The translations under genes and the position numbers were made by a program. From Octopus vulgaris (Eukaryota), in contig OX597827.1 in NCBI GenBank assembly GCA_951406725.2, positions 1,116,001 through 1,180,000 on the forward strand: a stretch of DNA of 64,000 bases, given 5' to 3'. Below, one piece after another: positions 230-55,049 of this stretch. The notes beneath the pieces were generated by a model. The model had not been told where the DNA came from. It did no database searches and worked only from the letters and a program-made list of their open reading frames with translations. Position 1 is the first letter of the stretch, and the number at the start of each line of letters is the position of its first letter.

Positions 230-790
230 GAAATCATACTACAGACACACCCCATTTCACGCTTAACTCAAGTTACGGGATTTTGAGCGAACGAAAATTG
301 TGAAGTATGATCACTGATTTCGGGATACGGTCTGTAATTTTCCTCTTACGGAAAATCGAATAAACTTTAAGAATTTTATAATGTACGCTTTCTTCTAAGC
401 GAAAAGTCCGATTCGAATTTTACAACATGAAAATCAATGAGAAAATTAATTTCATTTTTCGGGATTTTTCCCGTTTCGAAAAGTTTTTTTCAAGAGCACA
501 TTACTTTCGTATTTACCTGAATAACCTAAGGTATGTGTTTTCAAAGGACTCCTGAGGACCTCCTAGGGGTCGGTGAGCAACTACAGGGAATCGATGATAG
601 CCAAGGAGTCGGCGTGCGAAAGACCAGCTCACTCAGCTGAACTGCATGAAATAGTTAGCGCCATGAAACGTGGGAAAACGGGATAAACTTTCGCTGTTGC
701 TAACGTTCGCGGCCGGATGTCGTAAAATGTATCGTAATCGAAGATTGAGGGGTGCGACTGAAGGTATACGGACTGTCAAGTGTTTGCTTA
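230..790. promoter_or_regulatory. CpG-retaining unique segment, possible promoter/first-exon region
   Basis: Non-repetitive and visibly CpG-rich relative to most of the window; donor-like AAG|GTATGT at ~530 (+) and CAG|GTAAAT at ~516 (-). Function is inference only. Confidence 0.25.
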
Positions 791-14869: not shown

Positions 14870-16420
14870 AAAATACTGGATACCAAAAAGTCTCTCAGGT
14901 TCTCAATATGTCAACTGTATGTAGTCCATGTCTGCTACCAGATTCCAAAATGGAAACGCAGATGGCTCTCCTTTCTTGCACACATCTAATTCCTTTTTTA
15001 TCCAGTTTTTCTCTCAACACATTCGGGCTTTGTCGTTCAAACACATTTACATTGCACTTCTTACAGAACATGCTTGCTTCATTTCTTTCTACTTCTCAAG
15101 TCCTCTGCATTTGAGGTCAATATCTCACTGTCTTCTTGTCTTGAGACAGCATTCACCCGGGGTGGGTTGAGCTGGCTTCATTCATCCTCAATGCTGCATC
15201 TCTCACAAATGCCAACCAGGCCTGGCGATTTGAAGCTAACCACTCCCTATTTCTTTGAATTACAGTTACTACTCATTTTTGTCAGCTGAGTGGACTGAAG
15301 CAACATGAAATAAAGTGTCACTGGGAATCGAACTCACGACCTTTCAATCATGAGCTGAATACCCTAACCACTAAGCTATGTGCCTTTATACCTACTCTTT
15401 TCCTGATAATGAGCAAGGTAATTTCACTGAAGATGCCTGAGTCCTGCCTAATTTCTCATTAAAATCTTAGTCTTTGCTTAGTTTACCTTGAGGCCTCTCA
15501 ATTCTTGGTTTAGCTTCCATGTCTGAAATATCTTTATCGATTCAGCTAAGAGCAATAGATCATCATCATGTAGGAGTTCCCATGGACATCTAGCCTTAAC
15601 TCATCTGTAATGGCCTGAGGGACCACAATGAATAGGAGAGGACTGAGCCCTGATGAACTCCTACCTTCACACTAAATTCATCAATAAAATTGTTATTGAT
15701 TCTCACTTTACTCACTGCATCTCTGTGTACATAACTTGTACAGCCATCTCTCTATATATAAACGGCAAAATGTCTGTGTGTGTGTCCTTCATACAAATCC
15801 ACAATTTTTCAGTTAGAGGGCTCGCACTTTCTATGGTCATTCAAAACCGTCCAAGGGTGGTCGTGCACATCTTTACATTTCCCCAGTCACCCCGCAAAGC
15901 CATTAAAAATCAATAGAAGTGACATTTTTGTGAATTTTCTATCCAAAACCCAATCAAGATGCCCGAAACTTGATACGCCAATTGAATGCCAGCTAGCTGT
16001 ATGTGATTGGTCGGAGATTTGGACAGTACTCGTGTATATGTGCGCATGCACGCAGCTGTATATGCATGCACTAGCACTATGACCCAGCAACGCCGGGTCA
16101 TAGTGCTAGTCATAAGATATTCAGCTATACCTAGTTCCCTACTGAATGTGGTACCTTGTCAAATGCCTTCTTCTCAATGAATGTTAGGAACAATGGTTTG
16201 CTCTTAGCCAAGTATTTCTATTGCAGTTGTCTCACTGGGAAGATTCCATTAATAATACCTCCTCCAACCTTGAAATTAAATTGCATTTCATCAAGGTCTG
16301 CTCAGTCATAAATCAATTGCACTTTGACCTTAATTTCTTGATCCAGCAGTTTGATTTCTCTTCATTTTCCTAAACATCACAAGTGACAATCAAGGTAACT
16401 GTTGAATTAACTACCAGCTT
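14870..16420 (-). mobile_element. RTE-clade LINE reverse transcriptase remnant, interrupted by a SINE (~15140-15390) and a Helitron
   Basis: Translated fragments VRQLQ*KYLAKSKPLF..EKKAFDKVP, SKVRINN..EFSVKVGVHQGS..PLLFI, CPWELLHDDDL (decayed YADD) and ERNEASM...LREKL...VQERR. Confidence 0.9.
15747..16109 (+). mobile_element. Non-autonomous Helitron
   Basis: A|TC 5' end (tctctctatatataaacgg), subterminal hairpin atgacccagc-aac-gccgggtcat, CTAG|T 3' end, no TSD; splits the RT coding remnant. Confidence 0.88.
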
Positions 16421-18527: not shown

Positions 18528-19062
18528 GTTGCCCTTTTCAAGCCTAGCCAGGCTCATGGGCCAGGTTTCCCGGTTTCTGTGGTCTATGTGTTCCCCCCAG
18601 CTGGACGGGACACCAGTCCATTGCAGCGTTACTCAAGAAACAGGAAGAGAGAGTGAGAGAAAGAGTACAACAGGGGTCGCCACTACCCCCTGCCGGAGCC
18701 TCATGCAGCTTTTAGGTGTTTTTGCTCAATAAACACACACAACGCCTGGTCTGGGAATCGAAACCACGATCCTCCAACCGTGAATCCGCTGCCCTAACCA
18801 CTGGGCCATTGCACCTCCTGCGCCCTTTTCAAGCCTAGCCAGGCTCATGGGCCCGGTTTCCCGGTTTCAATGATGTATGTGTTCCTCAGCTGCACGGGAC
18901 ACCAGTCCATTGCAGCGTTACTCATTTTTGCCAGCTGAGTGGACTGGAGCAGCGTGAAATGAAGTGTTTTGCTCAAGAACACAATGCATCACCCGGTCCA
19001 GGAATCGAAACCACAATCTTACGATTATGGTGATGACACCCTAACCACTAAGCCACGTGCCT

Positions 19063-23048: not shown

Positions 23049-23289
23049 CTGCTGAATTTGTATCCTCTCCACTTTCTTATTTGCTGTATAAATCAAGGTA
23101 AAACCACTTTTTACCCCCGCCCATATATAACACAAAATTGCAAGCTTGCCAGGTAATAACTAGCACTTGGGTAAGAATAATTGGGTACACTACCAGCAGT
23201 ATATTGGATAGGTACTGTCCCTTAGTTGGTTTCTCATCCTTTAACTTACACAGAAAAATATATATATATATATTCACTATATGACTGCT

Positions 23290-23488
23290 TGTGTATCGTT
23301 GGCAATTTTTTTCCTCCGACTTCCCTTCCTCGGATCTTTCCTTTTCCTATGTTTCTGATGAAGAGTTCCACTCGAAATGTTAAATCCTCCTTCTTTCTTT
23401 CCTTTCCTGACCATCCAATAACACTATACTTGTTCAACGTCCTCGCGTTGTTGTGTTTTCTCTTTGTGTTTTCATTTTTGGATTAACT
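23290..23488 (+). mobile_element. Short repeat carrying a minimal hammerhead motif (23351-23385)
   Basis: gttt-CTGATGA-A-GAG ttcca CTC-GAAA-TG-T-T-aaat; second copy of the element, inverted, at 57314-57480. Confidence 0.75.
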
Positions 23489-23509
23489 ATATACACTTTA
23501 TATATACTT

Positions 23510-28821: not shown

Positions 28822-28876
28822 GAAAAAACCCACACAAAGAAAAGAAAATCAAAGCTCAAAATGGATTATTACTTAC

Positions 28877-31312
28877 TGGATGTGTCCCCTCTGTTGTAGC
28901 TTGACAGTGTATTCCAGAGGCAGAGACTTTCCTTGATTCCAGACTTGAGTCAAGCCCAGAGTGTGAATCAGCACAAAAGTCTGACATGTGAGCTTTTTCA
29001 TACTTTCCTAGATCTGGTACAGCCACTGGAGTTCCGCTTTGAGAGGTCATCTCGTCTGTGTAAAATTTTAGTTGTCTGCTTTCATCCACAAATTCACTGG
29101 TGTTAGCAAAGTGTGCCGCCCTCTGGTTATTTCTGCGTACTATGCACATGGTAATTGAGACAACAATTGCAATGGACACAATGAGGATGGCCACTAGTAT
29201 TATAATAAACAAATTGATGTGGATTTTTTTGTCTGATTTCGAATAAACAGTAGTCATTAATTTTGTTGTTTTATTGCTCACTGTTAGCATCAAAGACATT
29301 GTAGTCTTGGCAGAAAGCACTGGTGTTCCACTGTCTTTGACAACAAACTGGAGCTCATAGGAGCCGGCATCATTTTGATAAACAGTACGTGAAAATGATA
29401 GAACACCACTGTAAGGATTAACTGTAAAAAGCTGCTTATCGTTGCCACTTAGAATTTCGTATTTGAGAAAGGCATTCTCATAACTATCCCTATCTGATGC
29501 TTTCAGAACTGTGATATCATTCTTGCTTTGTGGATGGTAGTGGACATCTAAACTGAAAGGGTTAACACTAGGAAAGCTGAAATATGGTGCGTTGTCATTC
29601 TCATCCATCACTTCAACAATCACATTAGCTGTGTTGTTAAGGGACGGCGTACCATTGTCTTTTACTAAAACTTTAAATTCATAAACATCCTGTTGTTCTC
29701 GATCTAATGATTCAGTAGTTAGAATAAATCCGAAATCCGAAATTTGGAAAGGAAATAAATGGTTTTTGCTTTGCTCTAGATAAAAACTCAATTGACCTCC
29801 CAAGCCTTCATCTTGGTCTGTTGCATTGATAAAACCAACTGGGAAATTTATTTTCTCATTTTCATAGGTCAGAAATCTAAAAGTGTCCTTCGTAAACTGT
29901 GGTCGTACATCATTGACATCCATCACTTGCACAGAGAAAGAATTTTCTGTGTGTAGGGGAGGGGAGCCTTTATCTCGGCAAGTAATGGTAAAATCAATAG
30001 AATGTTCGCGTTCTCTGTCGACAAGATTTTTTATGACTACTTTGTATTTATTTCTTCCTAAGCTCTGAAGCTGGACTTTATCATGGTAAAGGTCACAGCT
30101 GACCTCACCGTTCTGTCCACTGTCATTATCAGTAACTTTTACATAGGCAATGAAACTGCCAATTTTGATTCCTTCAGAAATGGTAACTGTGTCTCCAGTG
30201 GATTCTGAAAAGAAGTTAACTTCCACCGAGGGAGCATTGTTATGTTGGTTGATGATATTTATCAAAACAATTGCGGTCGAACTGAGCGGTGGACTGCCAT
30301 TATCACTTGCTTCAATAAACAGTTTATATGTCCGTCTTTTTTCCAAACTAAATTTATTGTTTAGAAATATCTCGCCTGTTCTTGGATCGAGCCGAAAATA
30401 AGTCTTTGTCAAATTTGATGTTTTCGAATTAATGTGGAATAAAAATTTACCATTTTTACCAGAATCAAGGTCTGTTGCAGACATAGTAACAAGTGGTGTA
30501 TCAAAGTGATGTGTATTTTCAAGAGAGACATTATAAATATTCTTTGAGAAGACGGGAGGGTTATCATTAAGATCAGCTACGTTTATATGAATATCCAAAA
30601 AACCTTGCCTTGAAGGAGAGCCTCCGTCTCTTGCTTTAACTCTCAAGTTATATTTGTCTTTTACTTCTCTGTCTAGACTTACATCTAAAACAATTCCTAA
30701 TTTGGCAGTGCCATCAACTGTTTTGGTAACAGATAATTTAAATGGATCATCAACATTTCTTTCCAGCATGTATGTAATTTGTGAATTCAGAATGCCGACA
30801 TCTCTGTCAATGGCATTTGGTATAAACTTGACCATTCCCTTCTTATCTCCTTCGTCAAACTGGAGGGTTATGTTTTTAACAGGAAACTCAGGCTGATGGT
30901 CATTAATATCATTTATAATAACTTTCACTTCCAATATCTTAATAAATGAATCCATATTTTGCACAGCAACATCGACGATTCTATAGCATTCACTGTTATA
31001 TTTACATAATGTCTCAGCATCTAGAGTTTGGGCAGTATACAGCTCACCACTCTTAGACACATTAAACATTTCAGTACTCCGACCTTTGCCTTTCTTTAAA
31101 TTACTGAACGTAACCATTTTATAGTCAAGAAGATGTGTGTCAGCTGCAATGTTTCCGATGTAAGTGCCGGGCAGTTTTTGTTCATCCACATGGTAGGTAA
31201 CATCCAAACACTGGGCACCAATAAATATAAAAATTAGCAGCCACAAGTTAACGAGCTTGCTGTTATTATTGCACAGGAACGCCAACAAAGAAATATGCAG
31301 AGAACACTCCAT
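28877..31312 (-). CDS. Protocadherin, large first coding exon (812 codons; 818 aa if read through the donor to TGA at 28856)
   Basis: Hydrophobic signal peptide ending GAQC. Six cadherin repeats with Ca-binding motifs (DINDHQPEF, DLNDNPPVF, DVNDVRPQF, DENDNAPYF; LDRE/VDRE; AxDxG-type motifs). EC1 C-x5-C (LCKYNSEC) typical of protocadherins. TM INLFIIILVAILIVSIAIVVSITMCIV. Acceptor ttttttctttctaatttcag 3 nt before the ATG (exon starts 31315) and donor CCA|GTAAGT at 28877/28876. Confidence 0.96.
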
Positions 31313-31482
31313 TATCTGAAATTAGAAAGAAAAAATATATATATACATCTATATTCATATAAAAATATACACCAACACATACATATGAGTTGGTATATAT
31401 ATATATTCATATAAAAATACACACACACACATGTATATACATATATATTCATTACACACACGTGTTTATAAAACAAGAGTAG

Positions 31483-32048
31483 CTATATGATAAGAAAGTA
31501 GCTTCCCAATCTCATTGTTCAGTATTCAGTTCCACTGCTTGGCACCTTGTCCCCTGCTTGACAACCAGTGTTGGTGTGTTTACATCTCTGCAACTCAGTG
31601 ATTTGGCAAAAGAGACTGAAGGAATAAGTTGTTTGTTCCTTCTCAAGCCATGTTTGGTTCATAAGGGCTGGTTTCCCAGTTTCTTTGGCATATAGGTTCT
31701 CCACCTGGATGAGATACCGGTCCATCGCAGGTGAGCTTCTAGATGCAGAAGGAAAGAGTGAGAGAAAGTCGTGGTGAAAGAGTCAGCAGAGGTTTGCCAT
31801 TACCTTCTGCCGGAGCCACTTGGAGTTTAGGTGTTTTGCTCATAAACACACACATCATCCGGTCTGAGATTCGAACCCACAATCCCTCGACTGCAAGTCT
31901 GCTGCTCTAACCACTAGGCCATGTGCCTCAATGAGAGAATAAGTACTAGGCTAAAAAAAAAAGTACTGAGGTTGATTCCTTCAACTAAAATTCTTCAAGG
32001 TAGTACCTCAGTATGGCTGAAGTCTAATGACTGACACAAATAAAAGAG
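31483..32048 (+). mobile_element. SINE family A (+) interrupted by SINE family C (-, 31629-31929)
   Basis: Head at 31483, nested insert similar to 41018-41320, tail resumes at ~31935. Confidence 0.75.
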
Positions 32049-40751: not shown

Positions 40752-41574
40752 GTATGTATGTATGAATTATAATTGCGTGCGCTCACACACAAACACACAC
40801 AACCTGGTGCAGGCATGGTTTTGAAACTTGCTTCCCGACCACAAGATTTTTAGCATCAGTGGGTATGCATTTGTCTTCAACTAGAGTCACAGGCTGACCA
40901 AAGCCTTGTGAGTGGATTTGGAAGAGAGAAACTGAAAGAAGCCCATATAAATGTTTGAAAGAAAGAGGGCAGAATGTGTATATATACAAATATACACACA
41001 ATATGTGTGTTTTGCTGTGTTTGTTCCTTCTTGAGCTATGCCTGACTCATAAGGGCCAGTTTTCCGGTTTCTTTGGCATATAGGTTCCCCACCTGGATGG
41101 GATGCTGGTCTGTCGCAGGAGAGCTGCTAGATGCAGGAGGAAAGAGTGAGAGAAAGTTGTGGCGAAAGAATCAGCAGAAGTTCACCATTATCTTCTACTC
41201 GAGCTGCGTAGAGCTTAGGTATTTTTGCTCATAAACACACACATCGCCCGGTCTGAGATTCGAACCTGCGATCCCTCGACCGCGAGTCCGCTGCTCTAAC
41301 CACTAGGCCATGTGCCTCCACATGTGTGTGTGTGTGCATATCAGTGTTTGTGACTACCCTTGTCTTCGCCACATGTGATGATTATAAATGAGCATCACCA
41401 TCATACAAGCAATGTTCTTCATTTCCAGTCTTCCATGGAAAACATTTCTGGCCATGAAGAAATATTACTTTGCTTGGTGACAGGTGACGATTGGTGACAG
41501 GGAGGACATCCAGTCATAGAAAATCTACCACAACAAATTCCATTAAACCAATGCAAGCATGGCAAAAGTTACAA

Positions 41575-53997: not shown

Positions 53998-54370
53998 AGG
54001 GCTGTGTGACAAGAAGCCTGCCTCCCAATCACATGGTTCTGGGTTCAGTCCCACTACATGGTACCTTGGGTTAGTGTCTTCTACTATAGCCTTGGGCTGA
54101 CCAAAGCCTTATGAGTGGATTTGGTAGGCAGAAACTGAAAGAAGCCCATCGTATATGTGTGTGTGTGTGTTTGTACCCTGCCAGTGCTTGACAACCAGTG
54201 TTGGTATATTTACATCTCCATAACTTAGCAGTTTGGCAAAAGACACCAGTACCAGGCTTAAAAACAAAAAAAAAACCCCACTAAATTCAGGGGTCGAGTC
54301 ACTTGACTAAAAATTCTTCAGGGCAATGTCCCAGCATCGATGCAGTCTAATGTCTGAAACATGTAAAAAG
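53998..54370 (+). mobile_element. SINE family A
   Basis: Forward head ggctgtgtgacaagaagc...ggttcagtccca and full body. Confidence 0.85.
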
Positions 54371-54519: not shown

Positions 54520-54588
54520 GTTGGATACACTGTCATCATAAAAATGAGAAGTGATTCTTCTATGACGTGCACTACAGCGACTAGCATA

Positions 54589-54693
54589 CAGTTCTATATT
54601 TAACTGCACACGGGCATATGGTGTAGTGGTTAAGAGCATGGGCTACTAACCCCAAGATTCCAAGTTCGATTCCAGGCAGTGACCTGAATAATA

Positions 54694-54724
<31 letters not shown>

Positions 54725-54871
54725 TATTGAAAAATACCTTAGCAATGAGAACCCAGCTTCGAAATTTCCCCCAAGACACCTGATGAAGGCTGGAGGGTAT
54801 ATCAGCCGAAACATTGTGTTAACAACTGACACGATGAGGACAAATATCCATCAAATGTAAATAATGTAAAT
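54589..54871 (+). mobile_element. tRNA-headed short retroelement with internal (AAT)n and a minimal hammerhead (54775-54820)
   Basis: A box tggtgtagtgg, B box agttcgattcc, gacac-CTGATGA-A-GGCTGG agggtata TCAGCC-GAAA-CA-T-T-gtgtt; 13-bp near-perfect TSD agc(g/a)actagcata at 54576-54588 and 54872-54884. Confidence 0.8.
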
Positions 54872-55049
54872 AGCAACTAGCATATTTTGCATTTGAACCT
54901 GCCTAGACATGTGAAGAATAAATATGCATAGAATTGTTCCAGGTCTCCCTGAATGTGGTGCAAAGAAGAATTTTTTTTATAATGATTTTTTTTAGATTTT
55001 GTATTTGTTTTATCTAAATGTAAACTTTTCTTGTGTATTAAAAAAATAA

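Follow-up and report, generated by a model that had tools for sequence, protein, structure and literature searches.

A tRNA-headed hammerhead repeat in Octopus vulgaris is a truncated end of a Penelope-type retrotransposon

The unit and its parts

The window, meaning the whole stretch of 64,000 nucleotides of Octopus vulgaris DNA analyzed here, carries a short repeat in which a tRNA-derived sequence is joined to a predicted hammerhead ribozyme. An earlier note on this DNA had read the unit as a SINE mobilized by the machinery of a Penelope-like element (PLE). All the features that it listed were found where it had placed them when the window sequence was checked, and three more can be added: an inverted stretch of 17 nt, a family 3' end lying some 30 nt further on, and an ORF region upstream. 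The parts of the window copy are as follows.

54576..54588, + strand: left target-site duplication, its last 2 nt common to the element's inverted end
54587..54603, − strand: 5' inverted piece, matching exactly, in reverse complement, the 17 nt with which the family consensus ends
54605..54686, + strand: tRNA-derived head; putative RNA start near 54605-54612, tRNA +1 at 54612, nearest tested tRNAs Arg
54619..54629, + strand: A box, differing by one CpG-type change from the family consensus, which is canonical
54663..54673, + strand: B box of the tRNA-derived head
54687..54726, + strand: (AAT)n tract, differing in length among copies
54745..54871, + strand: 5' part of the RT-GIY-YIG reading frame; first ATG at 54745, truncated here along with the copy
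54775..54820, + strand: minimal type I hammerhead (predicted), with a 5-bp stem I, a 6-bp stem II, and a palindromic stem III
54775-54779 paired with 54816-54820, + strand: hammerhead stem I
54780-54786 plus one extra A, + strand: hammerhead core
54788-54793 paired with 54802-54807, + strand: hammerhead stem II
54808-54811, + strand: hammerhead GAAA; predicted cut after 54815
54821..54871, + strand: 3' part of the pseudo-LTR; of the two 3' ends that the family has, the copy stops at the inner one, without the ~30-nt tail
54872..54884, + strand: right target-site duplication, a direct repeat of the left 13-nt copy

The two 13-nt repeats (54576-54588 and 54872-54884) are identical at 12 of 13 positions. 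When copies are aligned, the true 3' end of the family lies about 30 nt past the point where the window copy stops, and upstream of the head the family extends into an ORF region of 2.4 kb. Rather than a stand-alone SINE, the window unit is a pseudo-LTR copy, truncated at its 5' side, that derives from a Penelope/Poseidon-type retrotransposon. At 54852-54871 there is also a 9-nt tandem repeat whose copy number varies among family members, with the reading frame kept.

How tRNA-like is the head? A profile of nine tRNA genes from the same genome matches only the head within the family consensus (E 3e-8) and recognizes the head of the window copy with an E value of 1.6e-4. In pairwise comparisons, which were limited to Arg, Ala, Thr, Cys, Lys, and variants of these, Arg-TCG and Arg-TCT were the best among the 13 tRNAs tried. 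The A and B boxes are canonical in the family, while the tRNA cloverleaf has decayed; free folding did not recover it (z 0.07), and neither ARAGORN nor Rfam made a tRNA call on the head. Rfam likewise made no hammerhead call.

The ribozyme region is weakly stable on folding (z -1.7). The majority of 29 aligned copies (from 30 loci, one of which gave no row) read ACGT in stem III, which bears out the earlier suggestion that the ACAT of the window copy is that palindrome after CpG decay. The core, which had been proposed from this single copy, is present in the family consensus and is also kept in the read-through peptides of relatives. Parsimony back-translation of the peptides of three relatives, an indirect line of evidence, leaves core and stems in place and would allow for one swap in stem II, from T-A to C-G, although the two sides of this swap are forced in different proteins only. 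Metazoan PLE minimal hammerheads are marked, according to the text of Cervera and de la Pena (2014, PMC4209133), by an extra base between positions 9 and 10.1 and by a palindrome, and the octopus prediction has both.

In the 2.8-Gb assembly searched, the exact 32-nt head pattern has 3,216 matches and the exact 30-nt hammerhead pattern has 4,027, against 0 for the reversed control in each case, so the unit of head plus hammerhead exceeds chance. Since the hammerhead 30-mer is exact in 11 of 57 ORF-picked copies that span the hammerhead, dividing 4,027 by 11/57 gives a rough figure of 21,000 hammerhead-bearing segments in the genome. The family copies are decayed descendants of near-identical sources. 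Contigs from sequencing runs under five organism labels match parts of the element. Do head and ribozyme belong together? The head-anchored sample was drawn from the first 91 head matches listed on contig C1, out of 3,216 in all; it holds 90 of them, and in 74 of these 90 copies an intact hammerhead region follows downstream. The remaining 16 are truncated or interrupted and have no foreign 3' part in common, except for one local duplicate pair. The view that a tRNA head and a minimal type I hammerhead travel together is upheld by these counts. Chance nesting of the two was considered and rejected, the head having no other partner.

The coding element

The first clue to an ORF was a locus (L024) in which an endonuclease-like frame stops just before the tRNA head. 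Judged by eye, the head follows the ORF in 29 of 30 loci picked by the DNA of the ORF end, a set that includes the query locus and three near-duplicates; among loci picked independently by protein, 27 of 30 have an RT + GIY-YIG ORF and the head in one alignment. The head lies about 30 nt after the ORF stop codon. Walking upstream from the ORF end reaches RT motifs. Selection by the ORF's 5' part gave 30 loci, 29 of which have the end of another repeat directly before the ORF start (again by eye). Partial tandems of pseudo-LTR, ORF, and pseudo-LTR occur, for example at L128 and L111, and such a structure is described as typical of PLEs (Craig 2021; Goubert 2022). The rebuilt consensus, which draws on 114 fragments and omits three codons present in single copies, is 2,642 nt long and, as a tandem, holds a single ORF of 832 codons. 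This ORF starts between the AAT tract and the hammerhead and reads through the latter, and the predicted cut would fall inside the ORF as read from its first ATG. A relative (P0047) has the same read-through peptide across the hammerhead.

What kind of element is this? The consensus ORF has a Pfam RVT_1 match (E 5.8e-08), and DKG and RT motifs and a CSC..H..H endonuclease region can be made out by eye. Relatives of the ORF carry PF00078 and PF26215. Pfam gave no GIY-YIG match in the element's own ORF, so the name rests on motifs together with PF26215 in the relatives; on these grounds, we take the C-terminal endonuclease to be of the GIY-YIG type. Among solved structures, the ORF matched only distant RTs, and the searches brought up no named PLE reference. 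Part of the ORF is shared, at 83-88% identity, with three annotated Octopus sinensis proteins. Set against the descriptions in Craig 2021, the endonuclease is C-terminal, unlike that of Naiad and Chlamys, and the RT-EN linker is without the extra Zn-finger of Neptune and Nematis. Because of this C-terminal endonuclease and the lack of a Cys-rich linker, the element is almost certainly of the Penelope/Poseidon type, a clade assignment made by comparing domain layout with published descriptions. The PLE hallmarks present are RT and EN in a single ORF, partial tandems, 5' inversions, two 3' ends, and a minimal hammerhead. Two metagenome scans for the head in DNA of related families found no such DNA. 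In three copies (L170, L194, and L197), the AAT tract of the element is interrupted by pieces of another, LINE-like ORF, which is probably of the R4/Dong type that targets AAT repeats.

Is there, then, a separate SINE that borrows a PLE terminus, as had been proposed? The head lies within the coding element's own pseudo-LTR, and no diagnostic substitution distinguishes 74 short copies from 57 ORF-linked ones, both of which speak against that proposal. A G/A variant at +63 occurs at like frequency in the two groups, and the significant differences between them are gaps and sites fixed by the search pattern. With variants common to short and ORF-linked copies, the short ones need no separate SINE source. 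Whereas a SINE would be a non-coding family sharing only its tail with a partner, here the whole unit is the partner's end. None of 28 short copies reaching the repeat end extends 20 nt into the ORF, so the data do not single out the template from which the short copies were made.

Copy ends, the RNA start, and the polymerase

The ends of the copies carry information on how they were inserted. In the second sample, the first 84 hammerhead matches on contig C1 (of 4,027), 3' ends fall in two clusters, +231..244 (46/84) and +265..270 (29/84) counted from tRNA +1; measured from the first ATG, the distances are 117-130 and 151-156 nt. In the anole, whose Poseidon element is PAc, two internal priming sites are reported to define the PLE tail (Frangieh 2024, PMC11167929), and the octopus clusters are close to these sites; the two 3' ends of PAc are 30-40 nt apart and about 110-160 nt into the ORF, compared with a spacing of ~30 nt here. 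A LINE-type tail was rejected, the 3' end being the PLE's own and without poly(A). Just 2 of the 84 copies end within 3 nt of the predicted cut site, so self-cleavage by the predicted ribozyme is probably no part of insertion. The hammerhead of the anole PLE is described as protein-assisted and dispensable for insertion (Frangieh 2024, PMC11167929).

At the 5' side, 57 of the 90 head-anchored copies have an inverted piece, against 1 of 92 at the same loci for a control, the tRNA-headed SINE family found at 54000-54150 of the window; inverted 5' pieces also occur in 41 of the 84 hammerhead-anchored copies. The contrast with the control SINE supports the earlier proposal of mobilization by PLE rather than LINE machinery. 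Repeats resembling target-site duplications, mostly 11-16 nt long, are present on the two sides of 34 of 85 copies; among shifted controls the count is 4 of 85. Direct short head-to-tail tandems are seen in few of the 90 copies (L169, L172, and L235).

Where do the copies begin? Of the head-anchored copies, 68/90 end at -20..+15, a per-base rate 10.4-fold above that upstream (P 5e-19). In the hammerhead-anchored sample, 35 copies reach +16, and 27 of them have their end at -20..+16, a rate 9.6-fold above that in the downstream unique sequence (P 8e-14). In these P values, inverted partners that belong to a single insertion count separately, and for 26 ends the assignment to the AAT tract is uncertain. 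The pile-up makes it highly probable that the tRNA-derived head sits at the start of the element's RNA. Because most head-bearing copies begin right there, the head is likely to be the element's own promoter. Could the pile-up instead have arisen because the structured, tRNA-like head makes reverse transcriptase stall or jump, or because a longer RNA is trimmed there by RNase P? A small GC hairpin does span -7..+5, with a fold-back palindrome at it in 11 of 90 copies, and 7 copies end exactly at +1, as RNase P would have it. However, 20 copies other than the fold-back ones traverse the hairpin and end at -7..-2, beyond the RNase P site; within the head (+17..+75), stops are few (5 events, 0.002 per nt); and the acceptor stem is degraded. 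So many ends at -7..-2 suit an RNA 5' end more than they suit stalling or RNase P cleavage at +1, and stalling or trimming as the origin of the pile-up strikes us as very improbable.

[quoted passage not shown] The element's protein would bind and prime reverse transcription within the first ~160 nt of the ORF, as has been measured for the anole Poseidon element (Frangieh 2024, PMC11167929). Copying back to the RNA 5' end would then yield the thousands of SINE-like insertions of ~280 nt, while priming at the downstream repeat would give longer, ORF-bearing copies. The hammerhead would be a slow ribozyme, dependent on dimer formation or on protein and dispensable for insertion.

Which polymerase is at work? 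The sense strand of the consensus has no T4 run in its 2,642 nt, compared with a mean of 2.9 in synonymous shuffles (P 0.03; base shuffle, P 0.012). Natural ORF pieces, 39 in number, related and non-independent, hold 29 T4 runs where 51.5 are expected; 25 other ORFs hold 90 against 92.8 expected. A Neptune-like PLE family of the same genome, which has no tRNA match, has 43, as its codons predict. Some other A-rich ORFs also have few T4 runs, and G4 runs are likewise absent from the consensus. Relatives at 64-75% identity are as poor in Phe, so the T-poor strand may be a trait of the clade that predates the head. The T4 deficit is a modest one. A start at the head by Pol III is nonetheless the likely reading of these sequence features. 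Passage of this polymerase through the ORF would be possible, the sense strand being without T4 terminators, and transcription of the whole ORF by Pol III, end to end from a tRNA-derived promoter in the element's own end repeat, is a more tentative proposition that we think doubtful. An uncapped Pol III RNA would need some route to translation; in RNA viruses, a ribozyme is reported to induce translation that is cap-independent (PMC13725137).

Two other accounts keep the same element and differ in what does the transcribing. RNA polymerase II (Pol II) might start at the head, in which case the tRNA part would be a fossil, left from the capture of a tRNA or a SINE head and serving only to mark the place. 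A TATA-like box lies over the stop codon, at -34..-30, a fitting distance for a Pol II start at the same place; known PLE promoters sit in the pseudo-LTR, as do promoter and start in D. virilis Penelope (Craig 2021), and a capped RNA is translatable. The T4 deficit (P 0.03) is modest enough to suit Pol II as well. A head-less hammerhead family in the same genome also seems to begin at a fixed point, in a query-biased sample, so the pile-up alone names no polymerase. Yet the A and B boxes have stayed canonical despite decayed stems, the start coincides with the tRNA 5' end, and the sense strand has zero T4 runs against the 43 of the Neptune-like family, all of which make a Pol II start rather unlikely in our judgment. 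Less probable again is the account in which solo pseudo-LTR copies are Pol III source genes themselves, a SINE born from a PLE repeat and moved in trans by PLE protein. It would explain why 74 of the 90 head-bearing copies are without more than 30 nt of upstream element and why short copies keep the A and B boxes and everything up to both 3' ends, and contig depth (not copy number) drops steeply at the repeat/ORF border in four organisms. Against it, the comparison of 74 short with 57 ORF-linked copies, in which the short ones came from one contig, gave no diagnostic substitutions, and internal priming on a long RNA, as described for the anole element (Frangieh 2024, PMC11167929), predicts the same short product.

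Relation to known systems and other repeats in the genome

How does the element compare with what has been described? Like anole PAc (PMC11167929), it has one ORF with RT and C-terminal GIY-YIG, tandem pseudo-LTRs, and an ORF overlapping the hammerhead. The first octopus ATG lies upstream of the whole hammerhead, whereas that of PAc is at stem II, and the part of the PAc report covered here mentions no tRNA-derived A/B-box head such as the octopus element has. The main text of Cervera and de la Pena 2014 (PMC4209133), on PLE hammerheads, mentions neither tRNA nor octopus. The pairing of tRNA head and hammerhead does have a precedent: the schistosome repeats Sm-alpha and Sj-alpha combine a tRNA-derived sequence and a hammerhead in one short repeat and are reported to be Pol III transcribed (PMC6765202, PMC2770079). 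Those repeats are non-coding, often tandem, and have a canonical hammerhead, whereas the octopus pairing is the terminus of an ORF-bearing element; in the portions of the two schistosome reports covered, they are not described as the end repeat of a coding PLE.

Non-LTR retrozymes, too, are short hammerhead-bearing derivatives of PLE pseudo-LTRs, and they are defined by head-to-tail tandems that give circular RNA (PMC7229834; bioRxiv 10.64898/2026.07.22.740005). Unlike them, the short octopus copies are mostly single or in inverted pairs and have a tRNA head. Cassandra, Helenus, and Ajax (PMC10886601) resemble the octopus element in having small-RNA gene sequence within a retroelement terminal repeat, but they are non-autonomous LTR elements, not an ORF-bearing PLE. 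In the portions of the literature covered, with Repbase, Dfam, and SINEBase outside the comparison, no coding PLE was found to be described as carrying a tRNA-derived head, and the element is not described in the parts covered of the O. vulgaris repeat paper and one supplement. Octopus SINEs named OR1 and OR2, related to tRNA-Arg, were reportedly described by Ohshima and Okada in 1994. The short form may already be catalogued as an octopus SINE of this sort, such as OR1 or OR2, without its ORF.

What does the arrangement mean? A SINE-type internal promoter would lie inside a coding Penelope terminus, so that the "SINE" and its partner are one element. This makes visible one way in which repeats that pair a tRNA part with a hammerhead, schistosome Sm-alpha among them, could come about; it also warns that thousands of tRNA-SINE-like copies in octopus-like genomes are truncated PLEs. 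The hammerhead-bearing segments can be read as a genomic record of the RNA start and of the RT priming sites, and this record agrees with the in-vitro PLE study, so far as the latter was covered (Frangieh 2024, PMC11167929). A Pol III start would be unusual for a protein-coding retrotransposon. If Pol III does read the ORF, the element would offer a natural, and rare, case of a protein-coding unit transcribed by Pol III, as well as a direct system for probing the purpose of PLE hammerheads. Were the whole ORF read, a single RNA would be both message and template for a built-in SINE, and the hammerhead might aid translation of the uncapped RNA.

Several other repeats and genes were met along the way. 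A second, unrelated high-copy repeat of ~230 nt lies at 23270-23500 (+) of the window, with a predicted minimal hammerhead at about 23350-23385 and no tRNA head. It is mostly flanked by (TA)n, has 3,452 first-look candidates, and is likely the end repeat of another PLE; no ORF belonging to it was found. The Neptune-like PLE family (L331:760-1400, − strand, and L354-L383) has an ORF of at least 1,072 codons, in which the N-terminus bears an additional domain and the linker is Cys-rich. Judged by eye from the consensus, the family's 3' repeat seems to contain a hammerhead whose core has U3-A8, a variant described in the PLE hammerhead literature (PMC4209133). An 821-codon open frame at 28859-31321 (−) of the window, with five Cadherin domains and an N-terminal Cadherin_2, is likely a protocadherin ectodomain exon. 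The tRNA profile also marks other tRNA-headed repeats in the window, at 54000-54150, 31865-31925, 15317-15382, 41254-41313, and 18752-18808, among others. Elsewhere, one locus (L139) has seven tRNA-Cys-like genes within 3 kb, two of them with changed anticodons.
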